From the NCBI GenBank assembly GCA_947626145.1, contig CANQRB010000004.1:29250-93249 (forward strand): DNA of 64,000 nt, given 5' to 3'. The first letter of the stretch is position 1, and every line of letters begins with the position of its first letter. Below are positions 4,721 through 32,990 of this stretch, piece after piece. Under the pieces are notes generated by a model, which saw nothing but the letters and a program-made list of their open reading frames with translations, ran no database searches and was not told the DNA's origin. Position numbers and translations under genes: made by a program. The DNA is from an uncultured Clostridia bacterium. GTDB lineage: Bacteria; Bacillota; Clostridia; UMGS1883.

Positions 4721-7700
4721 TTACAGCTCGGGAATGAAGTCGACTTCCGCACCAGCGGAATCAGCTTCGGTCTCGGCGATTTCGGTACTTACAAACTCAA
4801 TCTCAACACTGTCTAGGCTGAAGATCATAGCACCATCAACGCCTTCACAAGTAACATCATTGCCATTGATAGTTATCTTATAGAACAAGCCCTCAGTTTG
4901 AGTTGCTGTTTTATCTGTGCCGTTTACATCAACAATGGTAGATACCTTGAAGCCTATACCATTATCGTAAAGGGCTTTATCCAGTTCTATCGTTGTTCCT
5001 GCTTCACTGCTTGTAACTTTAATGAATTCTTTACGAACATCGTTAATAGCGTTCTTGTCATCAAGAACAACACCGCCGGTGCTGAGAATAGCAATGGCCT
5101 GTTCAAGCTTTTTTGCATCAAATTTTTCACGATTCAAAGTATCTTTGTAGTCGCTAAGGTTGGTTTTGATATCGTTAGCAAGCAACTCATAAAGAGATGC
5201 TTCAGCTTGAGCGATGAGATAACCGCTATTTGTGTCAACAAGCCTTGCCATATAGTAAATATTGCTTCCATTGTCTTTTTTCGGAATAACAAGTACAGAC
5301 GGAGCCCCGTTACTGAGGACAGAAGTGTCTATAGTCGTATTGTCTACTCCTTTACCGCCTTTTTCATTTGTTGTTTCGTGAAGATCAATAGCTGTAACCT
5401 TTAGCGTCTGTCCATCATAAGCACCATCGGCAGTAAAAGTTATGCCCAAAGTATCCGCACTGTCTCCATCAGCAGCAAAGCCAAGTCCAGCGGTGAGTGT
5501 AGCCGTCGCAGGAACGTCCACGCCACCTGCATATACGGCAAACTTGCTGATCTCAAGGTCTCCTTCACTTGAGGGATTGTTTCCAAAGAAGGAAACACCG
5601 TCAATTCCTCCATTGTTACGGAATGGTATGCCCATCAACATTTTACCTTCACCGGATGATTCATTCCGCACGGAAAGATTATATGTGTTATTTGTAACAT
5701 CAACATCTACGATAAAAGCATATGACTGATTAAGCTCCATTGTCATAAATTCTTTCTTGGCGGCGTTGTCTCTGTAGTAAATTTTGTCGCCACCGATAGG
5801 CAAATGAATACGAAGATTTGTGCCATACGCATCTGTCCCTTTTGCGTCGTACTTAAAAAATCCGATAGCGTTGTCGCCGTTTTGTTTGGCAACAAGAGTA
5901 AATGCGACGGTAAATTTGTCTGATATTTCTTTAGGGAAACGATACATTTCACTAAATGTCCTACCCTGATTGTTGATTACTGAGTTAGAACCAACGGTCA
6001 TGCCGGCTGTAGGATCAAATGTCTTTTCATGAGTCACAACATTTGCCGTCAAGGTAAGGCCTGTATCGGCGATAGTGCCGGTAGTATCCTCCCATGTTAC
6101 GGGCAATTCCTCGGCTGTCACTGCATCACTGTCAACAGTGGTCTTAATTGCGGTGGGAAGAACATAGTTATATCCTTCGAGAGTATTAATGTCAATGCTG
6201 TCGGGGCCGGTGATGGTGGCAGTTAACTCGGCCTCAACCTCAATTTCCTTAGTAGTGGTTGCGATAATAGTATCCTGATCAGACGCCTTATTGGTATAAT
6301 ATTTATCTGCTATGCGACGATTAGTAATAATCTTGCCATCACTGGCGGCACGGCCTTGATCAACGACCTGGTTTTCTGCAACTTTTACCGTTTCGCCTAC
6401 CTTGCCGGTCTGTTTCTCGATAGTGGCTACAGTTTGACCCTTGTATTTGGCATTTATGACGTAATCCACATCGTCGTTTTCAAGATTGCTAAGTTTGGTT
6501 ATTTTGAAGTTGTCGATGATGGGCTGAGTATCGTTACCGACCCAAGCGGTCTTAAAGCCCAGTTTTGTCTGCTTGGAACCGGTCCATACAATAAACTGCT
6601 TCGTCTCAAATTGATTGAGAGTGTGCAGGGTCATCTGCTGAAGCTTTTGGCTGGTATTGTCATTTTTGTCGGCATACCAATCAGCGCAGGGGTCGTCGGC
6701 CTCGCCGGTGCCATTGGCATCGGTTACGTAAAGCCACATATACTGATCCTTTGCCTGCTTGGTTGGCATGACGTCAAAGCTCACGAGATAACGGGTATTG
6801 GGGTCAACATTCCAAGTGCCGCCGAAAACAGTTCCGGCCGCACCGGCAACGCCCTTGAGCCAAAGAGCCTGGCTTCCTTCGGTCTTTTGGTTCTCACCCT
6901 TGACTATCTCATATTCTTCATTGGGTATATTAGTCCAACCATTAATACCATTTTCAAAGCCGTCGTTGGTGCCGGTAACAGTTCCCTCGACATTTTTTAC
7001 ATGTTTGGCGGTAATGTCGTAGTTGTTATTACCTTCACTCAAAGTGATCTCTTTGATTTCGGGGAGAGCAAGTTCATAAAGCTTTTCATTTTTAACAAGG
7101 TACTTGTTGCAACTGTTGAGAGAAAACTTATCTCCGGCAAAGTATTCCTTTTTATTTCCGTTTGGATTAGACTCCTCCAAAACATTTCCGCCGTCCATTA
7201 TGCGAACATTGACAGCAGCGTCGGGAGACAAAACCTTAACATCAGCAAGGTAAGCATCCTTAAGAGAAGCTACACCCCCAGTGGCATCTCCGCCGTGGAT
7301 ATTGGAGAGCAGAAAAGCGACCTTACCACCAACTATCTTATCGGCAGGAATACGGAGCTGAGACGTCACCTCAGTCCATGAATTAGATACATTTGATGTA
7401 CTCAGTGTTCCGACAAGAACTCTGCCCTCAACAGCAGTATCGAGCAGAGCGTTGTTCTCAGCTTCAACAGCTGCAGGGTCAACAGCAAAAATGGCAGCTT
7501 TAGATATACGGTCGTTAGCACCATTGTTAGACCATGCCTGAACCTTAAAGGTAGCCCGAAGAATTTGACCGGCAGCAACATTAGTGTCTTCTGGCAGTGT
7601 GAATTCAGCAAAACCCGCACGGTTATTTGAGAAAGACACTATGGCAGACTGAGCGTCTTGAACTTTGTATTCGTCAAATGTTTGCGGACGCTTAGCATCG

Positions 7701-7825
7701 GAATTAAAATTCCAACCATAAAGCTTATCTGCGGCGATATCTCCATCAGCCGCAAAAGCTACGGGCACTACTGTCAATACCATGGCCAAAACCACAGCCA
7801 ATGACAGAACTTTTTTGATTCTCAT
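4721..7825 (-). CDS. Large secreted protein of unknown function (1034 aa) with an Ig-like/carbohydrate-binding-like flavour
   Basis: AGGAGG RBS and a signal peptide MRIKKVLSLAVVLAMVLTVVPVAFAADG. The sequence is AT-rich relative to the core. An internal segment (LPTAIKTTVDSDAVTAEELPVTWED) resembles bacterial Ig-like repeats. No LPXTG or SLH anchor was seen. Confidence 0.8.
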   Translation of the reverse strand: MRIKKVLSLAVVLAMVLTVVPVAFAADGDIAADKLYGWNFNSDAKRPQTFDEYKVQDAQSAIVSFSNNRAGFAEFTLPEDTNVAAGQILRATFKVQAWSNNGANDRISKAAIFAVDPAAVEAENNALLDTAVEGRVLVGTLSTSNVSNSWTEVTSQLRIPADKIVGGKVAFLLSNIHGGDATGGVASLKDAYLADVKVLSPDAAVNVRIMDGGNVLEESNPNGNKKEYFAGDKFSLNSCNKYLVKNEKLYELALPEIKEITLSEGNNNYDITAKHVKNVEGTVTGTNDGFENGINGWTNIPNEEYEIVKGENQKTEGSQALWLKGVAGAAGTVFGGTWNVDPNTRYLVSFDVMPTKQAKDQYMWLYVTDANGTGEADDPCADWYADKNDNTSQKLQQMTLHTLNQFETKQFIVWTGSKQTKLGFKTAWVGNDTQPIIDNFKITKLSNLENDDVDYVINAKYKGQTVATIEKQTGKVGETVKVAENQVVDQGRAASDGKIITNRRIADKYYTNKASDQDTIIATTTKEIEVEAELTATITGPDSIDINTLEGYNYVLPTAIKTTVDSDAVTAEELPVTWEDTTGTIADTGLTLTANVVTHEKTFDPTAGMTVGSNSVINNQGRTFSEMYRFPKEISDKFTVAFTLVAKQNGDNAIGFFKYDAKGTDAYGTNLRIHLPIGGDKIYYRDNAAKKEFMTMELNQSYAFIVDVDVTNNTYNLSVRNESSGEGKMLMGIPFRNNGGIDGVSFFGNNPSSEGDLEISKFAVYAGGVDVPATATLTAGLGFAADGDSADTLGITFTADGAYDGQTLKVTAIDLHETTNEKGGKGVDNTTIDTSVLSNGAPSVLVIPKKDNGSNIYYMARLVDTNSGYLIAQAEASLYELLANDIKTNLSDYKDTLNREKFDAKKLEQAIAILSTGGVVLDDKNAINDVRKEFIKVTSSEAGTTIELDKALYDNGIGFKVSTIVDVNGTDKTATQTEGLFYKITINGNDVTCEGVDGAMIFSLDSVEIEFVSTEIAETEADSAGAEVDFIPEL

Positions 7826-13927: not shown

Positions 13928-16900
13928 TTATAAGGCTATCATACCATCAGTTTCATCATTACCATTAAGTTCTTCGTCCTTTTTGCCTGTGTTTTTATTC
14001 TCAGATATATCTCCTTCGAAAGCTGTTTCGACGGACTCTTCATTTTTAAGTTCTTTGCCTCCAAACTCATTACTGATATCCTTTATTGGCACTTTGTCTG
14101 GCAAGGATTCAATAGAAACTAGTGACTCTTCATCATGATAATTTATTAATATGCCATTAGATATTTTGAATACAGGCCAAGAGTTTCCTGATTGGTTAGA
14201 AGAAACTTTGTACACCTCAACTAAGTTATTTCCATTATATAACTCTACCTGTGCACCCGAAGTCGCCCAAGTACCTTCACCGTAGAACCAGTATACATAA
14301 TATTCATATGTGCTATTTATGTCCACTTCAAATGTAACGGTTTCCGGCCCTTCTCCATCGGTATCATCCACATCCAAATTGGCCACCAAATCTCCTGATG
14401 CATTATATCCGTTTCTGTTAGAAAAATATACATGAAAGTTTCTATGGTCTGAAAGGCTTCCAACCAAATGAGAGTCTAAGTCGCTGGGATTCATGTTCCA
14501 ACGAAGAACTGCCCTATATTGATTGCTAGTCATCGAAGGAGAAATGCTTCCATTTTGATTGGCAACTTCTCTTCCCCCAATTATTGTGACGTTGAAATAT
14601 CCGGTGGTGTATCCGTACTTTTCCATTTCTATTGTATAATACCCAGAGGATGCAGTTAGTGAATATTCACCACTACCGTTAGTTATTGTTGAAGATATTT
14701 CCTCACCTTTACTACTATTCCACCCGTTTCTCAACCTGACTATTACGCCATCAATAGGATATCCGGTTGTTGCGCTTGTAATAACGCCGCTTATTTTTCC
14801 TTCACCAGACTTTACAAGTTTAACAAGTTCTTCTGTTTGGTTGTCTTTTGTTACTGTCGCAAGCCCGTAGAAAGGCATATAACCGTCTTTTTCAATAACA
14901 ACAGAATATGTTCCCACATCAAGAGACAGTTCTTTTGCTCCCTCTGCGCCTATTTGAACTTTCCCAATCAAGAAATCATCATCAAGTATAGATATAGTTG
15001 CATCTTTTATAAATGTTTCATCTTCCGCATCAACAATTTGTATATAAAGAGTACCTCTATCCCCATATATACCAACATCATCAAATGCACGTTTTATAGT
15101 CATTTTTTCCGCTTTAGACAATCCCTGAGTATCAGCTTGAAGCAGTACATTTCTCCTTACGGTTTTAAAGTTAGAATTTGCACTGAAGCCCTTGCCCAAC
15201 GAACCATACCATAGGTCTATAAGCTTAGACATTGAAATGGCCGGAAGACTATAAGAGGGATAGCCTTGTGACATTAAATATGCAGCATGAGAAATTACTG
15301 ATGAATTCGTGTGAGCAAATACTGATTTATTACCAGTATTAGTGCACCAATTAGTTCCACCAACTTTACTGGGCTTATGGCAGGAAGATGGATCCTTAAC
15401 ATTTCTTAATGGTCGCCAGTCCTCCCCTATGGTATAGTTATTATCATCAACGAACCATCCAAAGATATCTGCGTATGCTTCGTTGATTGCATAAGATATA
15501 TGACCATTACTGTGATCGTGACTAAGTCCATTCCCTGTCTTAAACTGAACTACTCCATGAGTGTACTCATGAGCAATAATATCAAGTCCGCTGGCCGTAG
15601 TAGTTTGGAGATTACTGTCGTTATTACTATTATCATAAAAATAGAATTCTTTGTTGCCGCCTGTCCAACACGCATTACTACTGCCTCCAAATTTATGAAC
15701 AGTTACTTTAATAGGATATCCATTCCCGTCCACAGAGCGTCTGCCCAAAGTGTCCGCATACCAATTATATACATCTATCATATTGGTGTATGCAGAAATA
15801 GCCGTTTTATCTCGCCATACATTAAATTCACTGCCAACTCTACTATTAACAAGTCCCCCATCATACATTTTAATGTTTCTCTCTGAATCTTCCATATAGT
15901 AGAATAACCAATCCCATTGTTTAAATTGTACGGGGAATGACACTTCGGTATTTTTTTCATTTTCACCGCTACCAGTTACTCTTTTGTCGCCCCAGTCTAA
16001 AATATTGCTTCCAGAATAAATTACGGAACCAGTATATCCATTTATGATTACAGTTTCGTCAATATTGTCGCCAGACAAACAAATTACATATGCTACAACA
16101 GGACTTTGCTCATATTCATCAAGAGAATATATAACTACCTCTGTTGATACAACATCTACTGATTCTTGCGGGTACTGACTTTTAGCAATATTTATTGCTT
16201 CACTTTCTGATATCACGGGGTCGGTATTTACATCAACTAAGTTTGCAGATGCAACTACATCGGATGTTAATGAAGTAGATGTTCCATTATTATCTACAGA
16301 CACGGTTAAATTTCTATCATAAACGTCAAGCCCATTATATTGTTGACTAAAAGTATAATCAGTTCCGTATTTGCCAGAATTTGTCACAGATATATTTAAT
16401 TCTTTTATTGGATCGTTCATGCCAAGAATTGTTCGAACTCCGTATATTGCATAAAGAGCATCGTCTGGGGAGTTTATATCAATATCACTTATTTTACCAC
16501 TTATCGCTGTTACTTGGGATCCCTCTTCATTGTATTCTATATAAGTATCAAAATCTGCATCCTTATTCATTTGCTCTATATCGACAACTGAATTATTAGG
16601 AGACTCATTAATATTAAAGTTACTTTCTTTTATAACCGTAACTTCAAAAGATTTTGTTAAATTATAGTCTCCTTTCGATATGCTAGCGTTGAGTCTAACA
16701 TTTTTATTCTCATTTATCGGACGTGAGACGGAACCGCTTTCTGAAACTACATTAATATTGTTACTTTCCCATGATATATCTACTGTTTCAATCATTGTTG
16801 GTAAAATCAAATCATGAGTAACAGATTCTTTACAGTCACCTTTACTATATGTAATTTCAAGAGTATCATATGCATATTGAACTATCGCTTTATTAAATTC

Positions 16901-18244
16901 ATTCTCATCATATTCTACCCACCTTGCATACAAAGTTAATTTATTGTTAACGGCCAATTTAAAATCATAGATATTTTCGCAATCCCTATCAGTATACCAG
17001 CCACCAAACAAATAATCTTTACGTTCAGGGTCTTTGGGAATTGTAACATTATTTCCAGCTAAAATCTCTTGACTTTCAGGCGCATCCTCTGCCCCTTCAT
17101 AATTCAAATCAAAGGTGACAGTGTAAACGCCGTCCTCCTCAATTTCTTCTTCCCAACCAGCATACAGAGTCAAGCGCTCGGTAATTTCCGTGTTCTCAAA
17201 ATCAAACTCATAAACGCATTCCTCATCTGTGTACCAGCCCGTGAAGATATAGCCCTCTCTTTCGGGATCATCGGGACGCTCTGCATAATCGTTCTTCTTT
17301 ACTTTCTGGGTAGCCGGAGGATTTTTCGCTCCTGAATAATTCAGGTCAAATTTTACATTGTATCTCGTGGTGCCGCCGGAGCTTCCGCCACCACCGCCAC
17401 CACCGGTGGAACGACTTATCGTATATTCAACGCTCATCACATCGCTGACAAGAACATCATCTTTTACCGCGATTGCCTTCAGTGTCGCGGTAGACAGTAT
17501 ATTTATATTGCCACCTGTGTATTCCTCGCTGTCAACTGTGGGCTCTGTTCCATCGGTCGTATAGTAAATCTTAACGCCCTCGGTGTCGCTCTTAAGCGTT
17601 ACAAGCTGATTTACATAATATGTGCCCGCCTCAACGGACGCGACAGGGGCGGCTACCGTTGTGCGGAGACCGTTATAAACCATTACGGCAATGTCCCCAC
17701 GGGTAGAGGCTGATCCCTTTCTGCCCTTGAGGTTATCCGTTATACCGTTATCCTCAGCCGCTTTAATATAGCCGGCAGACCAATCATCAGGGTCGGATTC
17801 AACATCGTCGCCAAGACCGACGCCGCAAACCACCATCTTTATGGCCTCTTCATATTTGACGTCGTCATCCGGCATAAATCCGCCGCTACCGTTGCCGTTT
17901 ATTATCTCCTCTTTCGCGGCGACATTGATGTAGCCGCTGGCCCAGTGGTCGGCGGGAACATCGTCAAACTTTGTGGCGCCCTTGGAATTGCGGGCATCGT
18001 TCTCCTTGCCTATCATGCGGCATACTACCGCCGCCATTTCGGACCTTGTGATAGATTTATCCGCCCCAAATGTACCGTCGGCGTAGCCGGTGAAAATGTC
18101 GAGCTTTTCCAGAGCGAGAGCCGCCTCGGCGTAATACTCATTCCCCGTAACATCGGAAAAGACCGTGCCTGCGGCAAAAGCACCGATCGGCGCAAGCGAC
18201 AGTGTCATTGCCAAAACTAAAATGATGCTTAAAAATTTTTTCAC
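13928..18244 (-). CDS. S-layer-homology-anchored multidomain M4 (thermolysin-like) metalloprotease
   Basis: GTG start 8 nt after GGAGG, then a signal peptide. SLH-type repeats are present (FSDVTGNEYYAEAALALEKLDIFTGY..., FDDVPADHWASGYI...). A poly-Gly linker follows. Two InlB-B/Listeria-Bacteroides-type repeats are seen (YNVKFDLNYSG...GYIFTGWYTD, YTVTFDLNYEG...DYLFGGWYTD). The zinc site is IIAHEYTHGV with a downstream NEAYADIFG. C-terminal beta-sandwich-like repeats complete the protein. Confidence 0.9.
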   Translation of the reverse strand: MKKFLSIILVLAMTLSLAPIGAFAAGTVFSDVTGNEYYAEAALALEKLDIFTGYADGTFGADKSITRSEMAAVVCRMIGKENDARNSKGATKFDDVPADHWASGYINVAAKEEIINGNGSGGFMPDDDVKYEEAIKMVVCGVGLGDDVESDPDDWSAGYIKAAEDNGITDNLKGRKGSASTRGDIAVMVYNGLRTTVAAPVASVEAGTYYVNQLVTLKSDTEGVKIYYTTDGTEPTVDSEEYTGGNINILSTATLKAIAVKDDVLVSDVMSVEYTISRSTGGGGGGGSSGGTTRYNVKFDLNYSGAKNPPATQKVKKNDYAERPDDPEREGYIFTGWYTDEECVYEFDFENTEITERLTLYAGWEEEIEEDGVYTVTFDLNYEGAEDAPESQEILAGNNVTIPKDPERKDYLFGGWYTDRDCENIYDFKLAVNNKLTLYARWVEYDENEFNKAIVQYAYDTLEITYSKGDCKESVTHDLILPTMIETVDISWESNNINVVSESGSVSRPINENKNVRLNASISKGDYNLTKSFEVTVIKESNFNINESPNNSVVDIEQMNKDADFDTYIEYNEEGSQVTAISGKISDIDINSPDDALYAIYGVRTILGMNDPIKELNISVTNSGKYGTDYTFSQQYNGLDVYDRNLTVSVDNNGTSTSLTSDVVASANLVDVNTDPVISESEAINIAKSQYPQESVDVVSTEVVIYSLDEYEQSPVVAYVICLSGDNIDETVIINGYTGSVIYSGSNILDWGDKRVTGSGENEKNTEVSFPVQFKQWDWLFYYMEDSERNIKMYDGGLVNSRVGSEFNVWRDKTAISAYTNMIDVYNWYADTLGRRSVDGNGYPIKVTVHKFGGSSNACWTGGNKEFYFYDNSNNDSNLQTTTASGLDIIAHEYTHGVVQFKTGNGLSHDHSNGHISYAINEAYADIFGWFVDDNNYTIGEDWRPLRNVKDPSSCHKPSKVGGTNWCTNTGNKSVFAHTNSSVISHAAYLMSQGYPSYSLPAISMSKLIDLWYGSLGKGFSANSNFKTVRRNVLLQADTQGLSKAEKMTIKRAFDDVGIYGDRGTLYIQIVDAEDETFIKDATISILDDDFLIGKVQIGAEGAKELSLDVGTYSVVIEKDGYMPFYGLATVTKDNQTEELVKLVKSGEGKISGVITSATTGYPIDGVIVRLRNGWNSSKGEEISSTITNGSGEYSLTASSGYYTIEMEKYGYTTGYFNVTIIGGREVANQNGSISPSMTSNQYRAVLRWNMNPSDLDSHLVGSLSDHRNFHVYFSNRNGYNASGDLVANLDVDDTDGEGPETVTFEVDINSTYEYYVYWFYGEGTWATSGAQVELYNGNNLVEVYKVSSNQSGNSWPVFKISNGILINYHDEESLVSIESLPDKVPIKDISNEFGGKELKNEESVETAFEGDISENKNTGKKDEELNGNDETDGMIAL

Positions 18245-18342
18245 GATTGTAACCTCCAATTTTATTTATTCACTTTCTAATTGCAGGAAAACACCGCCAC
18301 TGTATGTCACGCCCCCTTTTGGGCGAATTTGTCCTCCGTACA

Positions 18343-22084: not shown

Positions 22085-22410
22085 TCTGGAGGGGATGATG
22101 CCGGCAATTTCTGACGCAACAAGCACCCCACCCCTGTGGTGGCCGGGTAGTGTTTAACTTCGAAATAAATCAATGAAATCATTAGTAATCTTATAACTTC
22201 TCCCTTGATTTATTCCGTTTCATCCGATCCCATTTTTGCAGCAGCCTCTTTATAGAAACATCCAAATATCCAATATAATTTTGCCACCGTAAAATCCGCT
22301 TATGATAGGGGCCTTCCTTTCCAAAAAACTTGTTGGATTGATACCGTCTCTGCCGCTTCTCACAAATCATGATAGCAGAGAAATCTAAACTGAAACGAAA
22401 CTGTCTTTTT
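22085..22410 (-). pseudogene. Decayed, internally deleted duplicate of the SAS-GT8-CDP-alcohol-transferase operon
   Basis: Nucleotide similarity was read by eye. Positions ~22085-22195 resemble 22830-22930 (the 5' part of the transferase gene). Positions ~22200-22290 resemble 22995-23090 (the GT8 3' end). Positions ~22300-22410 resemble 24630-24726 (the SAS start, 5'UTR and promoter box). No intact ORF remains. Confidence 0.65.
22369..22402 (-). promoter_or_regulatory. Box 1: 20-bp response-regulator-type box plus -10 hexamer
   Basis: Minus-strand sense reads AGTTTCGTTTCAGTTTAGAT-8 nt-TATCAT. The box is 22383-22402 and the -10 is 22369-22374. Confidence 0.6.
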
Positions 22411-22414
22411 TCTT

Positions 22415-22987
22415 TTATTTGTGCGGAACAGGATTGTTTTTACTCAAAATATGCTTATAGTATCGGATATAAAGGATGAGAGACATAATCATCAAACATC
22501 CGCTTATTAGAATTAGACCATTTGCTATTTTCAATGGGATATCGGGGAAAAGGATAAGCACAGATATAACAATATACAAAAAAACTGTGTTCAACTTTCC
22601 ATACCATTTTGCGCTGTTGACAGTATCTTTTCGTTTCAAAGCAAGATATCCAAGCGTGGCCATGCAGATTTCTTTTCCGATAAACAATACGATCAGAACA
22701 GACATCCACTTATACCGACTCGAAAGGCAGACAATAAGTACACATTGCGTCAATTTATCCGCTATGGGGTCTAATATCTTGCCAAGATCGGATACCATAT
22801 GGAACTTCCGTGCAATGATACCATCAGCAATGTCCGTAATTGCTGACGCGACAAGCACTCCTGTGGCTGCTTGGTAGTGTTTGACCCCGATATAAAGCCA
22901 TACGATCAGCGGGATCATCAGTAATCTTATAACGCTAAGCAAATTCGGTATGGTCAGGATTTGGTCTTTTTTGAATATCCTGTGCAT
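22415..22987 (-). CDS. CDP-alcohol phosphatidyltransferase family protein
   Basis: 190 aa, polytopic. Signature D-x2-DG-x2-AR...G-x3-D-x3-D is seen as TDIADGIIARKFHMVSDLGKILDPIADKL. A GGGAGG RBS is present. Confidence 0.9.
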   Translation of the reverse strand: MHRIFKKDQILTIPNLLSVIRLLMIPLIVWLYIGVKHYQAATGVLVASAITDIADGIIARKFHMVSDLGKILDPIADKLTQCVLIVCLSSRYKWMSVLIVLFIGKEICMATLGYLALKRKDTVNSAKWYGKLNTVFLYIVISVLILFPDIPLKIANGLILISGCLMIMSLILYIRYYKHILSKNNPVPHK

Positions 22988-23005
22988 TGAATATCCTCCC
23001 TTAAT

Positions 23006-23851
23006 CTATTCCGTTTCATCTGATCTCATTTTTGCAACAGCCTCTTTATAGAACACATCCAAATCTCCGATATAATTTTCTTTCCACGGTTTATTCCTTC
23101 CGCAGTAGTGAATTATAATGGAGTGCTTTCGTACCCAATTCAAATCAAGACTTTTTTCAAATGGACTGTGCACCCGATAAAGCCACTCTGTCATGTTATA
23201 TCGAAATGGGTCCAGCGTATAGATTTTGCTGCCATACAGGCTGCTGATAATGTCCTGATCCGGAAAGACAAGATGAGATTTTCTCTTTTCGATGAAGTGA
23301 AACACATCCGCATAGTCCTGCTCTTTCCGTAAAAGCGAGAGGTTCATGAGCAACACGCCGGAATTAATATATGGGCTGTTGTCATCCATATCCAGACGCA
23401 GTTCATTGAACTTATGGAGAAACCCAAGACTGTCAATGTGTGACGCTGCCGCATAATAGTATTCTTCCATCGAGGTCTGATACAGTGGAAGAATCGAACC
23501 ATTGAGAACAAGATCGGGGTCAAGATAGAGCACGCGGTCGAGAGTCTCCGGCAGATAGCGTGCAGCAAAAATACGGTAATAAATCTCTTGTGGATAGCGC
23601 GAAGTTGTTGGGGCCTCGTCAAGCGCCAAATAATCAGCCTTTATTGGGATCAGACATCCTCCTGCCTTAAAAAGCATTTTTTCGGTTGCTTTAAGCGCCT
23701 GCTTTGAAATTGAGGAATGAAGAAGATACACATGGAATACGCAGCCTGGGTTGGAGCGAATCAAGGTTGAAAGCATCACATTCAAATAGGGGATGTAGTT
23801 TTCATCCAAAGTAACAAGAATATTAATCGGATTTATCAATCCAGGATTCAT
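23006..23851 (-). CDS. Glycosyltransferase family 8 (GspA-like)
   Basis: LVTLDENYIPYLNVMLSTL, the DxD motif in YLDPDLV, and NSGVLLMNL. ATG 23851 lies 6 nt after GGGAGGG; the ORF-track start at 23899 is less likely. Confidence 0.85.
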   Translation of the reverse strand: MNPGLINPINILVTLDENYIPYLNVMLSTLIRSNPGCVFHVYLLHSSISKQALKATEKMLFKAGGCLIPIKADYLALDEAPTTSRYPQEIYYRIFAARYLPETLDRVLYLDPDLVLNGSILPLYQTSMEEYYYAAASHIDSLGFLHKFNELRLDMDDNSPYINSGVLLMNLSLLRKEQDYADVFHFIEKRKSHLVFPDQDIISSLYGSKIYTLDPFRYNMTEWLYRVHSPFEKSLDLNWVRKHSIIIHYCGRNKPWKENYIGDLDVFYKEAVAKMRSDETE

Positions 23852-23917
23852 TTTAATCCCTCCCTGTTTCTTATGTTGTATATAGTCTTCTTCACCCATT
23901 CACAAATCCTACCATTT

Positions 23918-24625
23918 CTATCGTGGTTTCAGAGTATTTTTATTTTGTTGGGTCTTTTTTAAGAGGTTATCCATTCTCCGATCAAGTTCCGCGCTGAGGT
24001 TTGCGCACTGATAAAGTTCCTCAGCCATTTCCGGGGTAAATGCAGAATCCTTTTTATAACGAAGCTGATGTTCAAGGCTGGCCCAGAAATCCATCGCTAT
24101 CGTGCGCAGCTGAATTTCTACTTTCATCATCCGTTTTTCATGTGCCAAAAAGATCGGAATTGCTACAATCAGATGCAGACTTCTATATCCGTTGGGTTTC
24201 GGGTTTTTTATGTAGTCCTTTTTTTCAATCAGGGTAATGTCATCCTGTATGAGCAATGCCTCTGACAGCGCATAAACATCGTCCGGAAATGAGCAGATTA
24301 CTCGAACACCGGCAATATCGTTTAGATTTTCTTCTATAGAGGAAAGTGTGGGCGGGATGCCCCGCCGCTCCAATTTTTCTTTTATGCTGCGGGGATTTTT
24401 CAGTCTGGTTTTGATACTGCTTATCGGATTACGGTCGAATTCCAAAGAATATTCTTCATTCAACACATTGAATTTTGTTTCAATCTCCATCATGGCACAT
24501 TTGTAATAGGACATCAGGCGGATAAAAGGTACAGATTTTCTCTGCATCCAGTCGATTGTCTGATCGTCCACAATAGAGAGCATTCGTGTTTTTATATTTT
24601 CATCCTCTTGATTCCATTCAGACAT
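23918..24625 (-). CDS. Small alarmone synthetase (RelQ/RelP-type GTP pyrophosphokinase, RelA_SpoT domain only)
   Basis: About 235 aa: IKTRLKNPRSIKEKLERRG...DIAGVRVICSF...KPNGYRSLHLIV...VEIQLRTIAMDFWASLEHQLRYKK. There are no hydrolase or regulatory domains. Confidence 0.9.
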   Translation of the reverse strand: MSEWNQEDENIKTRMLSIVDDQTIDWMQRKSVPFIRLMSYYKCAMMEIETKFNVLNEEYSLEFDRNPISSIKTRLKNPRSIKEKLERRGIPPTLSSIEENLNDIAGVRVICSFPDDVYALSEALLIQDDITLIEKKDYIKNPKPNGYRSLHLIVAIPIFLAHEKRMMKVEIQLRTIAMDFWASLEHQLRYKKDSAFTPEMAEELYQCANLSAELDRRMDNLLKKTQQNKNTLKPR

Positions 24626-24692
24626 TCTGATCTTCCTTTCCAAAAAACAAAGCTTGTTGGATCAATACCGGCTCTGCCGCTTTTCGCAGGTA

Positions 24693-24726
24693 ATGATAGC
24701 AGAGAAAACTAAACTGAAACAAAACA
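24693..24726 (-). promoter_or_regulatory. Box 2: 20-bp box plus -10 hexamer upstream of the SAS operon
   Basis: Sense strand reads TGTTTTGTTTCAGTTTAGTT-8 nt-TATCAT. It matches boxes 1 and 3 at 17 of 20 positions, and its 8-nt spacer (TTCTCTGC) is identical to that of box 1. Confidence 0.6.
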
Positions 24727-24818: not shown

Positions 24819-26588
24819 TCAAGCTGCAAGGCAGCGAGCGTTGGCGCTGGATTGCTCCAGCCGGTCAGATGCTGCTTTGATTGCAGCCATCTCACTTTCA
24901 GTTACGGTTTCCGGTTTATATTTGCCAAGCAACTTTCGTAATGCAGAACAGTCTTCTTTAATCTGCTTTTTTTCTTCTTTTTCAAGCTGCTTCCCAACTT
25001 TGTGCAATGCCTGTTCAGCTTCTGATAATACCTTCCCTGCGCGATTAACCATTTCTAAAGAGTTACGGCGAACACCATCCTGTGCCGCATACTGTTCCGC
25101 ATCGCGAATCGCCTGTTCAATCTCCGCATCGGACATTTTATCATTGTTCGAAATGGTAATAGACTGTGCTTTCCCCGTATCCAAATCTCTTGCGGACACT
25201 TTTAAAATTCCATTGGCATCAATGTCGAAAGTAACTTCAATCTGCGGCACTCCTGCGGGGGCTTTCTTAATTCCGTTAAGTTTGAATTTGCCGATGGTCT
25301 TATTATCGCGTGCCATTGGCCGTTCTCCTTGTAGAACATGAATTTCCACACTGCTTTGAAACGGTGCCGCGGTTGAAAAAATCTGTGAATAGTGAATGGG
25401 CAAAGTGGAATTTCTCTCCACAAGACGTGTTGCGACACCGCCTACTGTTTCAATAGAAAGGCTGAGAGGGGTAACATCCAAAAGAAGGATACCGTTTTCC
25501 GAACCGGCAATCTGCAGCGAACCGCCAGAAAGCGTGTCTCCCTGAATGGCGGCGCCCTGAGCAACACACTCATCCGGATTGATATTCTTTGACGGTATAA
25601 TACCGGTCAATTGACGCACTTTTTCCTGAACAGCGGGAATACGGGTTGCGCCTCCGACAAGGATGACCTTGCCAAGTTCGGATGGCGCAATACCAGCATC
25701 ATTCAAGGCGTTCTGTACCGGAATTGCTGTTCGATCCACAAGATCGCGGGTCAGCTCGTTGAATTTGGCACGGGTGAGGATAGTATCAAAGTGTATTATG
25801 CCGTCCTTTTCCTGGGCCAGGTACGGCAGGCTTATCATAGCGTTCTCTGAGCCGGACAGTTCCTTTTTTGCCTGTTCAGCCGCTTCACGCACACGCTGCA
25901 ATGCTACATAATCTTTTTTTACATCTGTATGATACTGCCTCTGAATTTCCGAAATCAAATACTCAGTGATACGCTCATCAAAGTCATCGCCGCCCAAATG
26001 GTTATCACCATTTGTTGCCAGAACTTCTATAACGCCGTCTCCAATCTCAATGATGGAAACATCAAAAGTACCGCCGCCAAGGTCATATACCATGACCTTT
26101 TGCTGTGTTCCGTTATCCAGCCCGTAAGCAAGCGCGGCGCTGGTTGGCTCATTAATAATCCGTTTTACATTTAAGCCTGCAATTCGCCCGGCATCTTTTG
26201 TGGCCTGTCGCTGAATATCGTTAAAATAAGCGGGTACAGTGATGACCGCGTCCGTCACTTCCTCTCCAAGAAAGGCTTCTGCATCCTTGCGCAGTTTTCG
26301 TAGAATCATTGCACTGATCTCCTGCGGCGTAAATCTTTTACCGTCAATATTGATAGTCCAATCCGTCCCCATGTGACGTTTCACAGACGAAACGGTTCGG
26401 GACGCATTAGTAACCGCCTGTCGTCTTGCCGTTTCACCCACTAACCGTTCACCGGATGCGGTAAAAGCAACAATGCTGGGAGTGGTTCTTCCGCCTTGTT
26501 CGCTTGGAATGATAACGGGTTTGCCGCCCTCTACAAAAGCGACGCAGCTATTCGTTGTTCCAAGATCAATACCGATTGTTTTTCCCAC
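24819..26588 (-). CDS. Accessory Hsp70-family chaperone (DnaK paralogue)
   Basis: [25 protein letters not shown] and GGDDFD, followed by substrate-binding and lid regions. The likely GTG start at 26588 gives the canonical [15 protein letters not shown]-terminus; the ORF track extends to 26615. It is AT-richer than the core, and no grpE lies nearby. Confidence 0.9.
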
Positions 26589-26605
26589 AGTAATTCCATC
26601 CTTTC

Positions 26606-27406
26606 CTACATACATCTAAGGCAGCCAAATGGGCCGCATAGGAATTGCATGGCTAAAAAGCCAAAACATATTTTTTGTATATTAGTGGCTTCCATATCGA
26701 AGCCTTTTGCATTTTGTTCATAGGTTTGCTCTGAACGGCGAAATTTTTGCAAAAGCAGATGATAGGTGCGATTATTCGGCTCCATTTGTGATGCTCTCTG
26801 CATATGGTCGATTGCCTGAACGGTGTTACCAAGACCATGATTGGCAAGAGCGCTTAAATAATACCACCTTGCACCTCGTCCTACGCTCGGTATACGGGTC
26901 AAAATCCAAATTGCCTCTTGATAGCGATGGTTATTGATTTCAGTAATGGCCTGCCTGATTTCCATATTGTCGCCCGGCTCAGGCTGCGGATTCATAAAAA
27001 CGGCATCATCATTGCCGTTCCGTTCAAATCCAAATCCAAAAATATTCCCAAAGTCAAAGCCGCCAAAATCGCTCGACCAGCCACCCGGACCTCGATAACC
27101 GCCAGAGCCGCCCTGCCTTTCATATCCGGTTCCACTATAACCGCCGTTTTGATTTTCCGTATATCCCCCATATTGCCTACTCTGTCCGTAAGATTGGCGC
27201 TGCTGTGCTCGCCTTGCCTCATACTTCTGCGGATTCATCAACATATCGTAGGCTTCATTCACCGCATTCATTTTTTGGCTCGCGGTCGGATCATCGGGAT
27301 GCAAGTCAGGATGATATTGCTTTGCCTTTTGACGATATGCTTTTTTTATTTCTTCTTTAGTCGCTCCTTTAGGAACGCCCAGAGTTTGATAAGGGTCATT
27401 GACCAT
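26606..27406 (-). CDS. J-domain protein with G/F-rich linker, TPR-like region and hydrophobic Cys-rich tail
   Basis: J domain [36 protein letters not shown] (HPD motif). A Gly/Tyr/Phe-rich tract follows. The C-terminus is [21 protein letters not shown]. There is no DnaJ-type zinc-finger CxxCxGxG repeat. Confidence 0.85.
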
Positions 27407-27409
27407 GGC

Positions 27410-28228
27410 TCACTTTTTCCTTTCCGTCTGCATTTGCCGGTTATATTTGATCCAAACGCCAGAATAAAGAATGTTCCTTAAAATGTGGGCGTCCTGGACA
27501 AGCGGCAGCGATTCAAAGGCTTCAGCAGCTTCTCCGAGAATGGTCTTCAGCATGGAGCGGATTTCTTCCTGACTCAGAGTGACAGAAGAAAAAGGATTAT
27601 AACTTCCTTTTTTCTGGTCATGCCTTAAATCAATCGCGGCATCGGCAAGATAGATATACTTTCCGATATGATAACCAAACTTCTGCAAACGCGGCATCCA
27701 GTGATCCGGCTCAACCACAAAAATCGTTGACATCAATCTGCCAAAGCTGTTGGCTGCCGCATCTGGAGAGGCGAAGCAGGATTTCTCAATTTCAGAGATT
27801 TCATTTATTTCCTTTTCGATGATCGAACACTGATCTTTTCTTGCTGCTCTGACTTCTTCATAAGCCTTTTTAAGCAGAGTGGCATAGCACTTGTGGGAGA
27901 TATTTCGATCATCGTTCCAGTCGTCAAGACATTTGAAGTATGTCAAGGCTATTGTCATATCGGCGGCATAGTCTATATATTTACCGGACAGATAATTATG
28001 TTTCTTGCATGGATGCACGGCACATCGCACCGCTTTGCTGGTTTCCTCCGGTTCATACAAGGATGATAAAAACATAGCCAAGAATGTCAGATCGTATGTC
28101 AGTCCCAATCGCGACCTAAATCCATACCTTTCCCCCAACGCATGACACAATCCGCAATAAAAGGCACGATACCGTTCTTTTTCTTCATCAGTAAGACCGG
28201 ATAAATTGGCCTGTATGATTCCAAACAT
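27410..28228 (-). CDS. DUF5685-like protein
   Basis: 272 aa. The N-terminus MFGIIQANLSGLTDEEKERYRAFYCGLCHALGERYG...LTYDLTFLAMFL matches my memory of DUF5685. This was not verified by search. Confidence 0.55.
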   Translation of the reverse strand: MFGIIQANLSGLTDEEKERYRAFYCGLCHALGERYGFRSRLGLTYDLTFLAMFLSSLYEPEETSKAVRCAVHPCKKHNYLSGKYIDYAADMTIALTYFKCLDDWNDDRNISHKCYATLLKKAYEEVRAARKDQCSIIEKEINEISEIEKSCFASPDAAANSFGRLMSTIFVVEPDHWMPRLQKFGYHIGKYIYLADAAIDLRHDQKKGSYNPFSSVTLSQEEIRSMLKTILGEAAEAFESLPLVQDAHILRNILYSGVWIKYNRQMQTERKK

Positions 28229-28237
28229 AGTGCCACC

Positions 28238-28648
28238 TCATGTTTTGCGGGTTATTTTGCCTTTACATACCGGACAAGTGATTTCAATTTGCCCTTTTCC
28301 TTTCGGAACTCGTAGCCAACTTTTGCAGTTCGGACATTTATAATACCGATGCGTCTTTCGATCTCGCCACATATTTTTCCGACGTTTGAAACTCTGCTTC
28401 ACTTTGTCTGTATATTTCAAGAAAGTTTCCCGCTCCTTCTGTCGTTTTTCAAGATTGCGGGAAAAGCTGCGAAACATCGACCAAATCAACAGAATCATCG
28501 CAATCGGATATAGCAGAGGGACGAGCGGGGAAATGAGTACGAAAACCAGCACCGCAATCAATAGAAATTTGGAAAGCTCGTCATAGCCGTATCTTCCGTA
28601 CATCCATGCCTGCATTTTTTCTCCGAGCCTTTGCAACCATCGTTTCAT
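28238..28648 (-). CDS. Membrane-anchored zinc-ribbon protein
   Basis: 136 aa with two TM-like segments, then YYKCPNCKSWLRVPKGKGQIEITCPVCKGK (CxxC...CxxC). An AAAGGAG RBS is present. Confidence 0.65.
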   Translation of the reverse strand: MKRWLQRLGEKMQAWMYGRYGYDELSKFLLIAVLVFVLISPLVPLLYPIAMILLIWSMFRSFSRNLEKRQKERETFLKYTDKVKQSFKRRKNMWRDRKTHRYYKCPNCKSWLRVPKGKGQIEITCPVCKGKITRKT

Positions 28649-29845: not shown

Positions 29846-30940
29846 TCAGTTTTTCTGGCTTTCTTCTTCTGCATTTAGCTTTGATTTCGGCAATGTAACC
29901 GTAAACATGGTAAGATTGTTTTCGCTTTGAACCGAAACCGTTCCGTTGTGCAATTCCACCACTTTTTTGACAATTGCAAGCCCGATTCCGTTTCCCTCAC
30001 CGGAGTGTGAACTGTCAGCCTGATAAAATTTCTGAAAGATTCGTGATATACTTTCCGCAGGAATTTCCTCTCCCGAATTGATGATATCCACGGACAGGGA
30101 AGACGGTTGATTTTTAATATTGACTTCAATGACTCCTCCAGCGGGAGAAAATTTGATCGCGTTATCCAGCAGATTGATCCACACCTGTTTCAAAAGCTCC
30201 TCATTGGCAGAAATCCTGTATTCACCGAAATCCACTTTAAAGTCCAGTTGCTTTTTTTCCCACTTGTCGGCAAGCAACAGGATGGAAGACCGGATTTGTT
30301 CTGAAAGGTTAAACTTTACAACATCCGTTAAAATCGTTTGATTTTCTACCCGCGTCAGATTCAACACGTTTGTCGCCATATCAGAAAGCCGCAGAGATTC
30401 TTCTTCGATAACCGCCAAATATTCCCCTTTTTGTTCTTCTGTCAGGTTGCCTCGGCGAAGCAGCTTTGCAAAGCCGGCAATAGATACGATGGGCGTTTTG
30501 AATTCATGCGAAAAATTATTTACAAAATCCCCACGAAGCATCTCTGTATTTTTGAGTTCAGAAGCCATTCGATTGAAGCTGTGCGAAAGCTGCGAAAAAG
30601 TAGGATGTTTGGATATGGGCCATCCGAAATCCAATCGGGCACTGAAATCACCGGATGCCAGCCGATCGATTTGATAAATTACATTCCGCAGGGGGCGGGC
30701 GGATATTTTACTGGATAAATAGGCAACAATGACACCGACAATATTACTGATGACGATCATGTAGAGGATGATAATACCGATGTTTGATCGGATATCGGTA
30801 TCAAGCGTGACAACTTGAAAATGTACCAGCATATAAATAATAGAAGCGGTTATTGAAGTAATAATAAATTGAATGAAAAAAATAAGTGTCGATATTAAAA
30901 ACGTGAGCGCAAAATAATGTTTTCGATTTTGTTTGTTCAT
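29846..30940 (-). CDS. Sensor histidine kinase, intramembrane-sensing architecture
   Basis: Two TM helices are separated by only about 13 residues (FQVVTLDTDIRSN). HAMP follows, then the H-box FSHEFKTPI and an HATPase domain (NLLDNAIKF, GNGIGLAIV). Confidence 0.9.
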   Translation of the reverse strand: MNKQNRKHYFALTFLISTLIFFIQFIITSITASIIYMLVHFQVVTLDTDIRSNIGIIILYMIVISNIVGVIVAYLSSKISARPLRNVIYQIDRLASGDFSARLDFGWPISKHPTFSQLSHSFNRMASELKNTEMLRGDFVNNFSHEFKTPIVSIAGFAKLLRRGNLTEEQKGEYLAVIEEESLRLSDMATNVLNLTRVENQTILTDVVKFNLSEQIRSSILLLADKWEKKQLDFKVDFGEYRISANEELLKQVWINLLDNAIKFSPAGGVIEVNIKNQPSSLSVDIINSGEEIPAESISRIFQKFYQADSSHSGEGNGIGLAIVKKVVELHNGTVSVQSENNLTMFTVTLPKSKLNAEEESQKN

Positions 30941-31611
30941 ACTTTTTTCACCGCCTTATATCCGAGCCCGCGCACGGATTCGATATCAAATTCTTCCCAA
31001 CCCTCGAACCGTTTGCGGAGCCTGCCGATGTGAACCGTCACAGTTTCCCACCCGGTATCGCTCTCAGCGCCCCAGATTTCATCCATCAGTTGAATCCGTG
31101 TAAAAATCTTTCCGGGGTATGACAGCAATTTATAAAGTAACAAAAATTCCTTTTGCGGGAGTTCTTGTGTCTCGCCGTTTTTGGTCACGGTAAAGGAATC
31201 GTAATCCAAAATTACATTTCCAATCGTCATTTTACGTTCGTTGGCAATTTGAGCGCGGCGTAGAAGTGCTTTGATTCGCCAGAGCATTTCTTCCTCATCA
31301 ATCGGTTTTGTCATGTAGTCGTCAATCCCTAATGAAAAACCTTTATGTTTATCTTCGGGGAGCTGTTTTGCCGAAACCATAAGAATGGGAAGATTGTTCT
31401 TGCTTTCGCGGAGGATTTTTGTAAATTCATATCCGTCCATTTTCGGCATCATTATGTCGAGAATCACAAGGTCAATATACTCTTTATCCATTACATCGAG
31501 GGCGTCTTCACCGTTTTCCGCAGTAAATACAGAATAGTGCTCCGTTTCAAGCACGGCTTTGAGCAGCCGGCGTGTATTTTTATCGTCGTCTACAACAAGA
31601 ATTTGGAACAT
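30937..31611 (-). CDS. OmpR/PhoB-family response regulator
   Basis: Receiver domain (ILVVDDDKN...DLVILDIMMPKMDG...MVSAK) plus winged helix (VTVHIGRLRKRF...VRGLGYK). Its stop overlaps the kinase start by 4 nt. Confidence 0.93.
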   Translation of the reverse strand: MFQILVVDDDKNTRRLLKAVLETEHYSVFTAENGEDALDVMDKEYIDLVILDIMMPKMDGYEFTKILRESKNNLPILMVSAKQLPEDKHKGFSLGIDDYMTKPIDEEEMLWRIKALLRRAQIANERKMTIGNVILDYDSFTVTKNGETQELPQKEFLLLYKLLSYPGKIFTRIQLMDEIWGAESDTGWETVTVHIGRLRKRFEGWEEFDIESVRGLGYKAVKKV

Positions 31612-32318: not shown

Positions 32319-32502
32319 GGACCGCCTCCTATTAATTTATTGTTTGTATTATTCCATAATATAACCGTATGCCCTTTGCGGGGCGTATATAATCTACTGA
32401 TTATGACTATTATATCACATTTTTGTGATTTAGAATAGTATTAATAGAAATTATTTTTAGAAGGTTATCTTTATGGATGTACAAAAGCGCATCAGGTAGT
32501 TG

Positions 32503-32787
32503 ATGGCGGAAAGAGGCTGGTCAGACTATAGGCTTGCAAAGGAGTCCAACCTCTCTCACTCAACTATAACGAATATATTCAACAGAAATAACGCCCCAAC
32601 GCTGCCAACATTGGAGTCCGTATGTTCCGCTTTGGGGGTAACCATGTCACAGTTTTTCACTGAAGGCGACGAACCCGTTGTGTTGAGCAGCGAACAAAAA
32701 ATAATACTTGATAGGTTCAACACGTTATCACCGACTCAGAGAAAAGTCATTATTGAACTGCCTGGCAATATGAACAAAGGCACATGA
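32503..32787 (+). CDS. XRE-family helix-turn-helix regulator (the N-terminus is preceded by an in-frame TAG)
   Basis: MAERGWSDYRLAKESNLSHSTITNIFNRNNAPTLPTLESVCSALGVTMSQFF. Upstream and in frame, ATG 32473 encodes MDVQKRIR and then TAG (32497-32499). Confidence 0.75.
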   Translation: MAERGWSDYRLAKESNLSHSTITNIFNRNNAPTLPTLESVCSALGVTMSQFFTEGDEPVVLSSEQKIILDRFNTLSPTQRKVIIELPGNMNKGT

Positions 32788-32871: not shown

Positions 32872-32883
32872 AAATATAAAAAT

Positions 32884-32990
32884 CTAACGATTACTCAATA
32901 ATCCAACGATTACCCCAAAAAACTAACGATTTCCCATAAAACCAACGATTTCCCATAAATCCAACGATTTCCCATAAATCCAACGATTAC
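32884..32990. repeat. Six iterons with an AACGATT core at 19-20 bp spacing
   Basis: Cores lie at 32886, 32905, 32925, 32944, 32963 and 32982. The middle units are near-identical (CCAACGATTTCCCATAAAT). Confidence 0.9.

Follow-up and report, generated by a model that had tools for sequence, protein, structure and literature searches.

A four-gene operon of an uncultured Clostridia bacterium (GenBank assembly GCA_947626145.1, contig CANQRB010000004.1, positions 29,250 to 93,249) encodes a small membrane protein with a zinc ribbon (ZnR), a DUF5685 protein, a J-domain protein (J-protein) and an Hsp70. The whole stretch of 64,000 nt that was analysed is referred to as the window, and coordinates are window positions unless a related locus is named. 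A two-gene module widespread in Clostridia, with DUF5685 and a "cysteine-string" J-protein as its core, appears to be present here in an Hsp70-equipped version. On balance, this module is probably a membrane-directed J-protein/Hsp70 system with an isoprenoid-diphosphate-binding enzyme as its obligate partner. Taken as a whole, a membrane J-protein/Hsp70 module with a prenylated J-protein tail is the best explanation for the data, proposed tentatively and a little short of evenly balanced.

The preliminary description of this DNA reported four tightly packed genes, encoding a membrane-anchored CxxC...CxxC protein, a cysteine-containing DUF5685-like protein, a J-domain protein without the DnaJ zinc finger (with a G/F/Y-rich tract, a TPR-like region and a hydrophobic, cysteine-rich tail) and a full-length Hsp70. 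All of these features were borne out, with the genes co-oriented in the order ZnR–DUF5685–J–Hsp70 (Table 1). The spacing of 10 nt or less given for all the junctions holds for ZnR/DUF5685 and DUF5685/J (gaps of 9 and 3 nt) and probably fails for J/Hsp70. The GTG start of Hsp70 is more likely than the upstream ATG, which would turn a 10-nt overlap into a 17-nt gap. This GTG is preceded by a ribosome-binding site (GGAAAGGA), gives a DnaK-like N-terminus and is also the start adopted in the gene calls of near-identical contigs. Terminator-like hairpins on both sides delimit a clean four-gene operon. Exact copies of the window ZnR, DUF5685 and J-protein are also on record on a 191,278-bp NCBI contig. 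A member of the Hsp70 cluster from a record of equal length measures 496 aa versus 589 aa here, suggesting a truncated call or a frameshift.

The conservation of the linkage was analysed by a profile-guided scan of one genome per species, which yielded 593 DUF5685 loci. The best 80 were kept for the linkage counts, and their open reading frames (ORFs) were searched with the window proteins. The hosts belong mostly to the Oscillospiraceae, Christensenellales, Lachnospiraceae and Peptococcaceae, with one labelled Paenibacillus, and are for the most part strict anaerobes. A J-protein gene lies directly downstream of DUF5685 in 80 of the 80 loci. ZnR is present in 48, directly upstream of DUF5685 in 38, downstream of the J gene in nine and upstream in one (L019), which the position filter had set aside for an extended DUF5685 ORF overlapping ZnR and which is counted within the 48. 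An adjacent Hsp70 was found in 20 loci. These counts define DUF5685 and the J-protein as the invariant core, with ZnR and Hsp70 as frequent add-ons. The conserved linkage of the four genes is therefore strict for the central pair and uneven for the other two, the full ZnR–DUF5685–J–Hsp70 order recurring in one subclade (L006, L011, L013, L014, L016, L020, L021, L060 and L096–L098).

The central pair is also maintained at greater distance. In Pusillibacter faecalis, the genes annotated "DUF5685 family protein" and then "J domain-containing protein" overlap by 4 nt, with a DUF5685 33% identical to that of the window; in Subdoligranulum variabile, the J-protein gene still adjoins a DUF5685 that is 28% identical. 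The linkage is reciprocal, as three J-protein homologues recovered in an independent search all lie within a ZnR–DUF5685–J–Hsp70 array. The stop and start of DUF5685 and J overlap by 8–11 nt in L006 and L096–L098, in place of the short gap seen in the window, and the pair is often translationally coupled.

The pair is located among housekeeping genes in most genomes (e.g., gatCAB, ligA, dnaE, gmk, rpoZ and priA). No Pfam family is enriched among the 145 nearest flanking genes, the maximum being 6 of 145 (YunB reaches 3 and RelA_SpoT 2), so the RelA_SpoT, GT8 and CDP-alcohol phosphatidyltransferase neighbours of the window are lineage-specific. A sporulation link is unsupported by this count. 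In a plasmid collection, the only matches were two large Oscillospiraceae replicons, one with housekeeping genes and one unannotated, with no sign of a plasmid-borne module.

The DUF5685 protein matches its Pfam profile over positions 1–271 of 272. Its AlphaFold2 model, built from a 32-sequence alignment, is all-helical with one beta-hairpin (predicted local distance difference test 87, predicted template-modelling score 0.88). A Foldseek search with this model placed MoeN5 at the top rank and gave a template-modelling score of 0.60 for CrtE. DUF5685 is thus predicted to be a soluble, all-alpha protein with the isoprenoid-synthase fold of trans-IDS enzymes (trans-isoprenyl diphosphate synthases) and prenyltransferases. 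No transmembrane (TM) segment was found, and the modelled fold is trans-IDS-like rather than the alpha–alpha barrel of CaaX/Rab prenyltransferases, alpha/beta heterodimers with a catalytic Zn and CaaX or CC/CxC acceptors. Sequence-level membership in the trans-IDS family (PF00348) was tried with Pfam, PDB and hhalign comparisons and rejected, leaving a relationship by fold only. A profile search of PDB sequences returned nothing relevant, and trans-IDS genes, looked for in the 80 loci, were not found there.

Conservation across 83 DUF5685 sequences (41–100% identity) highlights three groups of residues, alongside many near-invariant aromatic ones. Four residues, C25, C28, C69 and H72 (CCCH), occur together in 81 of the 83. 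The first acidic motif, D102-[D/N]-W-x-D106 (DDxxD, 102–106), is situated at the C-terminal end of helix 83–107, with D102 and D106 in at least 95% of the sequences. The second, D196-A-x-x-D200-x-x-x-D204 (DxxxDxxxD, 196–204), is present in all 83 at the C-terminal end of helix 178–199. Both motifs are kept in the distant Subdoligranulum protein, as DDLAD and DAAEDYEKD. Class I isoprenoid enzymes carry two Mg-diphosphate-binding motifs on helices D and H. The acidic motifs of the DUF5685 model, separated by three helices, would match these positions, an argument of topology and not of superposition. In its spacing, DxxxDxxxD resembles the NSE/DTE triad seen in class I terpene synthases. At 50% identity, 5,924 representatives of the very large DUF5685 family reach E ≤ 1e-3; the top 150 range from 222 to 400 aa, none long enough for a fusion with a J-domain.

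Against the DnaJ equivalog TIGR02349 (cut-off 377), the J-protein reaches 83 bits, with a match confined to the N-terminal part; the CxxCxGxG zinc finger and the C-terminal substrate-binding domains that characterise type I DnaJ are consequently missing. Its AlphaFold2 model comprises a confident J-domain (1–73), a disordered G/Y/F-rich linker (76–134), a confident helical domain (140–233) and a low-confidence helix (238–256). The helical domain consists of three tetratricopeptide repeats (TPR), for which a weak Pfam match was also detected. Every partner J-protein has the same succession of J-domain, disordered linker, 3-TPR domain and hydrophobic cysteine tail, and the HPD motif is intact in 81 of 81 homologues.

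The tail, the one unusual feature of the J-protein, has about 20 residues (approximately 247–266 in the window protein) and is 73% hydrophobic, 6% charged and 21% cysteine on average over the 81 homologues. Between 4 and 10 cysteines (median 6) occur in the last 30 residues of every one of them, compared with 0.57% cysteine in the rest of the protein. The final residue is a cysteine in 59% of the tails, and 89% have a cysteine among the last four. The endings are of the xxCC, xCxC, CxxC and similar types, not CaaX, and the spacing of the cysteines (CC, CxC, CxxC) is unconserved. As autonomous TM helices these tails are borderline, with a median of 1.43 for the best 19-aa hydropathy window and 21% reaching 1.6; none attains this threshold when cysteine is replaced by serine. 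The suggestion that the system is membrane-proximal, made in the preliminary description, gains support from this hydrophobic tail and from the two predicted TM helices of ZnR, and keeps the standing of a suggestion. The isoprenoid-synthase fold of DUF5685 and the universality of the cysteine-rich tail go beyond that description. In S. variabile (L104, 3935–4570), the J-protein beside the distant DUF5685 reads NPD in place of HPD and has a tail with 10 cysteines. If real, this variant indicates that the pairing of a cysteine tail with DUF5685 can outlive Hsp70 stimulation.

The proposed mechanism would start with the binding of a prenyl diphosphate by DUF5685, which would pass the prenyl group on to at least one cysteine in the tail of the J-protein. 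Once lipidated, the tail would hold the J-protein at the cytoplasmic side of the membrane, possibly beside the two-TM ZnR, and the J-domain would recruit and activate Hsp70 for membrane-proximal protein quality control. The Hsp70 used would be the private paralogue where present and the housekeeping DnaK in the approximately 75% of genomes without one. In the window, the operon would probably be expressed from an upstream sequence box (box 3, Table 1) under the control of the OmpR-type response regulator and short-loop histidine kinase encoded nearby, within a membrane or envelope stress regulon of four units. Peptide prenyltransferases with a trans-IDS fold, encoded next to their substrates, provide one precedent (ComQ/ComX and PalQ; also ChrPC; PMC13290415). 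The lipidated J-proteins of eukaryotes are another. That DUF5685 prenylates the J-protein tail is possible, with the doubts outweighing the support to some extent.

These doubts have several sources. Tryptophan, not cysteine, is the acceptor of every trans-IDS-like peptide prenyltransferase that has been characterised (PMC13290415, a 2026 review). The Trp-recognising Gln that they carry immediately upstream of the second motif (PMC13290415) is replaced in DUF5685 by Ala, found at position 195 in at least 90% of the sequences, and the second motif itself is not DDxxD. No sequence similarity to trans-IDS was detected: DUF5685 was the only Pfam match at E ≤ 10, and hhalign against an IspA mini-profile (IspA sequence identical to 1RQJ) gave a probability of 0.1%. 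The placement of the two motifs as counterparts of FARM and SARM (the first aspartate-rich motif and the second) thus comes from helix topology, not from residue-level superposition. The four-ligand CCCH site looks structural rather than catalytic, and a string of 4–10 cysteines is more reminiscent of multiple acylation or of metal binding than of a single prenylation. ZnR is missing from 40% of the modules and is found outside them, which makes its role as a partner weak. Finally, the connection between the response regulator and the boxes is one of position.

A rather unlikely, though still appreciable, alternative dispenses with lipidation. The J-protein would be a simple tail-anchored or amphipathic membrane J-protein, and DUF5685 its client, regulator or sensor. 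DUF5685 might then make or bind a membrane polyprenyl lipid (the C55 carrier or a terpenoid), needing the J-protein and Hsp70 for assembly or switching, or else shield the greasy tail in a hydrophobic tunnel. The predicted helicity and hydrophobicity of the tails, about a fifth of which reach the classical TM threshold, are in agreement with this possibility, and the fold predicted for DUF5685 is one that binds long prenyl chains. The same applies to the position of the operon in an apparent envelope-stress regulon that includes a CDP-alcohol phosphatidyltransferase and a glycosyltransferase. TM-anchored J-proteins have precedents in E. coli DjlC and DjlA. A simple anchor leaves unexplained the high cysteine content of every tail, and no cysteine-to-serine version reaches the TM threshold. 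Moreover, the lipid-enzyme neighbours are lineage-specific, and DUF5685 has no TM segment of its own.

The Hsp70 encoded by the operon matches PF00012 over profile positions 2–594 of 599 (E 1e-216, 721 bits), revealing a full-length architecture of nucleotide-binding domain, linker, substrate-binding domain and lid. Alignment to Geobacillus DnaK 2v7y (663 bits, no N-terminal gap) shows intact ATPase motifs. The protein passes the DnaK equivalog NF001413 (810.4, cut-off 648), falls below TIGR02350 (798.6, cut-off 822.55) and remains far below the HscA models TIGR01991 (558.9 versus 708.55) and NF003520 (556.8 versus 620). Its assignment as a DnaK-type paralogue, not HscA, is settled at the level of sequence comparison. 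A neighbour-joining tree included 18 module-linked Hsp70s, DnaKs of hrcA-grpE-dnaK-dnaJ operons (Vescimonas fastidiosa, Ruminococcus albus, Monoglobus pectinilyticus, Paenibacillus cellulosilyticus and Listeria monocytogenes) and the gene of a Streptomyces dnaK-grpE-dnaJ operon as the outgroup. The 18 are monophyletic (bootstrap 98/100), with the six annotated operon DnaKs and an unannotated S. variabile DnaK-like gene outside. The Hsp70 from the module of a Paenibacillus metagenome-assembled genome falls in the module clade and not with the Paenibacillus operon DnaK. The phylogenetic placement suggested earlier thus resolves into a DnaK-derived clade of its own.

The window Hsp70 is 73–81% identical to its own subclade and 54–60% identical to the operon DnaKs. 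The subclade is characterised by an insertion of 8–17 residues just before the interdomain linker; across the whole clade, only one weak diagnostic position was found. The C-terminal "CLAA" of the window protein was considered as a CaaX box and discarded as a coincidence, being unconserved in the 17 other module Hsp70s.

The 64-kb window contains no homologue of GrpE or HrcA and no type I DnaJ. Together with the separate clade, this absence upholds the earlier view of a private Hsp70 without GrpE, outside the housekeeping dnaK operon. That the protein is nevertheless a housekeeping DnaK, in a rearranged dnaK operon with unusual co-chaperones, is very improbable. A passed DnaK cut-off and intact motifs are what such a protein would display, and GrpE does occur in one of 86 module loci (L072, 11644–12063), between the J gene and Hsp70 (ZnR–DUF5685–J–GrpE–Hsp70), a locus that may represent an ancestral or hybrid state of the clade. 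Against these similarities stand the missed TIGR02350 cut-off, the separation from operon DnaKs of the same families, the lack of the usual partners in the window, the low-GC surroundings and the 75% of modules that have no Hsp70 at all. The module Hsp70s form, by sequence, a dedicated DnaK-derived paralogue clade.

A strongly hydrophobic stretch of ZnR (residues 21–60) was interpreted, from hydropathy, as a pair of TM helices, and its C-terminal part carries a CPNC...CPVC ribbon. Conservation among 51 homologues adds an N-terminal GRYGxD motif and a basic FRxFSRNxxKRxxEN segment. Outside the module, one homologue stands alone after a large MerR-like gene (L102, 5001–5423), and another (L103, 4285–5417) is translationally coupled to a gene for a RelA_SpoT small alarmone synthetase, whose stop it overlaps. 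Downstream of the module, a RelA_SpoT gene is likewise found in the window, L006, L012 and L016. In P. faecalis (L088, 4586–4996), a 136-aa, two-TM, cysteine-rich protein of the RseC family occupies the ZnR slot upstream of DUF5685, with ispD and ispF within 5 kb upstream. As a general alternative to ZnR this protein was rejected, since it occurs in none of the 80 loci.

The cysteines of these proteins could also be interpreted in terms of metals or redox chemistry. The cysteine string would bind metal or sense the redox state, either as a Zn, Fe-S or Cu site or as a thiol switch of oxygen-sensitive anaerobes, in a relay with the CCCH site of DUF5685 and the Cys4 ribbon of ZnR that controls the chaperone. 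Conserved cysteine sites are present in all three non-Hsp70 proteins, the hosts are largely strict anaerobes, and the Pusillibacter protein belongs to a family labelled "SoxR reducing system". Redox-switched zinc-ribbon chaperones working with DnaK are known, such as Ruc of M. tuberculosis (PMC7448276). This interpretation is improbable: the spacing of the tail cysteines is unconserved; with its greasy character and near lack of charge, the tail differs from metallothionein-type or Fe-S sites; the RseC-like neighbour is absent from the 80 loci; and the conserved Asp-rich motifs in the isoprenoid-synthase fold would be left without a role.

Regarding the genomic setting, a 16-nt box (TTTYKTTTCAGTTTAG) occurs in the window four times and no more, each time on the minus strand and upstream of a gene unit. 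Only 0.21 copies are expected by chance, and four were reached in 0 of 100 shuffles. The copy ahead of the operon, box 3, had been pointed out previously and is one of these four; the operon promoter probably has a -35 region that overlaps with it. The 11-nt core of the box was searched in related genomes (approximately 2.7 Mb of sequence, approximately 0.6 chance matches expected). In L098 it immediately precedes ZnR, in L096 it lies upstream of ABC-transporter genes and also of Flavodoxin_3–FtsH, and in L006 it lies upstream of a MatE gene.

The response regulator encoded behind box 4 comprises Response_reg and Trans_reg_C domains, and its histidine kinase HisKA and HATPase_c domains (Pfam annotation of identical contigs). 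The kinase has two TM helices with a loop of only about 14 residues between them, the layout of intramembrane-sensing kinases. From its position, the response regulator looks to act through the boxes in an autoregulated two-component regulon, and we infer that the four units form a two-component-controlled membrane or envelope stress regulon. The alarmone synthetase and the lipid and glycosyl transferases would then be switched on together with the module by a membrane-sensing two-component system.

Several further observations concern the neighbourhood. The box 1 region (22169–22404) is a mosaic of short copies, 83–91% identical, of three other segments: box 2 with its 5' untranslated region (24649–24725), the 3' end of the GT8 gene (22996–23053) and the 5' part of the CDP-alcohol phosphatidyltransferase gene (22905–22933). 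Judged by sequence, this region looks like a duplicate of the adjacent unit that has suffered deletion. A 19–20-nt unit (CCCATAAAnCCAACGATTT) is repeated five to six times in tandem at 32875–32988, between an XRE-type helix-turn-helix gene (32500–32787) and tRNA-Ser; the repeats appear iteron-like or operator-like. In three independent genomes, Flavodoxin_3 and then an FtsH protease gene follow the Hsp70-bearing module (L006, 6710–9224; L096, 10697–12828; L098, 9791–12250), and HtpG is encoded upstream of it in L098. These neighbours hint at a wider membrane-proteostasis island in this subclade.

The operon belongs to a low-GC block extending from approximately 4.2 to 33.1 kb of the window (GC 0.32–0.49, compared with about 0.58 outside), with 0.42–0.48 across the operon itself. 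The AT-richer composition noticed previously is thereby confirmed. Other products of the block are an SLH/thermolysin-like surface protease of 1443 aa (13928..18259) and a protein of 1034 aa (4721..7825). A flanking direct repeat of the tRNA end was not detected, nor was an integrase noticed. An apparently acquired region beside a tRNA gene is the kind of place where an anti-phage defence or conflict system with an Hsp70-like ATPase might be sought, and the adjacent RelA_SpoT-like protein does match the PADLOC candidate PDC-S33. Such a role for the module has very little probability: ZnR, DUF5685, the J-protein and Hsp70 are all without a PADLOC match, nuclease or other effector domains are absent, and the pair resides among housekeeping genes in most genomes.

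Table 1. Operon genes, regulatory elements and neighbouring features of the window
Feature	Position	Strand	Remarks
ZnR	28648..28238	minus	ORF, 136 aa; weak zinc-ribbon Pfam matches
DUF5685	28228..27410	minus	ORF, 272 aa; PF18937, E 2.3e-94
J-protein (class III)	27406..26606	minus	ORF, 266 aa; DnaJ domain PF00226 at residues 4–61, E 4.8e-21
Module-linked Hsp70	26588..24819	minus	Probable GTG start, 589 aa; alternative ATG at 26615
Terminator-like hairpin	28838-28814	minus	11-pair stem, then T-run; end of upstream response regulator–histidine kinase–TauE unit
Terminator-like hairpin	24758-24729	minus	12-pair stem, then T-run; end of four-gene operon, directly before box 2
Box 1	22400-22385	minus	Ahead of p149/DUF1269
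Box 2	24724-24709	minus	Ahead of RelA_SpoT–GT8–CDP-alcohol phosphatidyltransferase unit
Box 3, TTTCGTTTCAGTTTAG	28720-28705	minus	About 55 nt before ZnR start codon
Box 4	31674-31659	minus	Directly upstream of response regulator (response regulator–histidine kinase–TauE unit)
Two-component system	29846..31611	minus	OmpR-family response regulator 31611..30937; histidine kinase 30940..29846
RelA_SpoT small alarmone synthetase-like gene	24643..23918	minus	Box 2 unit
GT8	23899..23006	minus	Box 2 unit
CDP-alcohol phosphatidyltransferase	22987..22415	minus	Box 2 unit
tRNA-Ser(GGA)	33154-33244		Right edge of low-GC block

Among known bacterial systems, E. coli employs HscC with the membrane-anchored J-proteins DjlC/DjlB, and DjlA with DnaK. 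As in the HscC/DjlC pair, a specialised Hsp70 is encoded here beside its own class III J-protein with a hydrophobic segment and without a dedicated GrpE. Unlike in both E. coli systems, this Hsp70 belongs to a DnaK-derived paralogue clade and is optional (20 of 80 modules), the candidate anchor is a cysteine string and not an ordinary TM helix, and a third partner with a predicted isoprenoid-synthase fold is obligatory. The DnaK of the canonical Bacillota hrcA-grpE-dnaK-dnaJ operon is likewise an Hsp70 of the Gram-positive type, from which the window protein differs by its separate clade, by the pre-linker insertion of its subclade and by the absence of HrcA, GrpE and type I DnaJ.

In eukaryotes, the cysteine-string protein DNAJC5 is palmitoylated, and Ydj1/DNAJA1 is farnesylated at a CaaX box. 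The clostridial J-proteins share with them the succession of J-domain, flexible linker and C-terminal cysteine region, which in the eukaryotic proteins is lipidated and tethers them to membranes, and the 4–10 cysteines per 30 residues resemble the cysteine string. The likeness to DNAJC5 is one of architecture, by analogy, and no homology beyond the J-domain is claimed. Unlike the eukaryotic systems, neither a DHHC acyltransferase nor an alpha/beta CaaX prenyltransferase is present, and unlike Ydj1 the tails mostly end in CC, CxC or C. With regard to ComQ/ComX, PalQ, ChrPC, Ord1 and MoeN5, DUF5685 is distinguished by the lack of detectable sequence similarity and by its DxxxDxxxD second motif. 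It further departs from the trans-IDS-like peptide prenyltransferases in the replaced Gln, in the additional CCCH site and in its putative acceptor, a 266-aa chaperone cofactor with a cysteine tail in place of a small Trp-containing signalling peptide.

Nothing was found in the full texts searched on this module, on bacterial cysteine-string J-proteins or on the pairing of an isoprenoid synthase with a J-protein. The only paper found with DUF5685 merely lists it as a domain in C. difficile R20291. Specialised Hsp70/J-protein pairs are few in bacteria (HscA/HscB, HscC/DjlC and DjlA), and we know of none in which a partner has an isoprenoid-synthase fold or the anchor is a cysteine string. The chemistry underlying the module stands a substantial chance of being new for bacteria. 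In its boldest form, DUF5685 would be the first bacterial enzyme to S-prenylate a protein of its own cell, a zinc-containing cysteine prenyltransferase of the trans-IDS fold acting on the J-protein cysteine string, and Clostridia would have evolved a lipid-anchored Hsp70 co-chaperone independently of eukaryotes; we regard this as unlikely, yet worth stating.

DUF5685, a very large family, acquires a predicted fold, candidate catalytic residues, an obligate partner and a testable substrate hypothesis. If prenylation proves false, the strict DUF5685/J-protein pairing remains the sign of a connection, so far unexplored, of chaperones with isoprenoids. If it proves true, endogenous protein S-prenylation would occur in bacteria, and the trans-IDS-like prenyltransferases would extend beyond tryptophan. 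The clostridial lipid-anchored co-chaperone would then be a functional parallel to farnesylated Ydj1/DNAJA1 and to the palmitoylated cysteine-string protein, and the module would show how gut Clostridia direct Hsp70 to the membrane.

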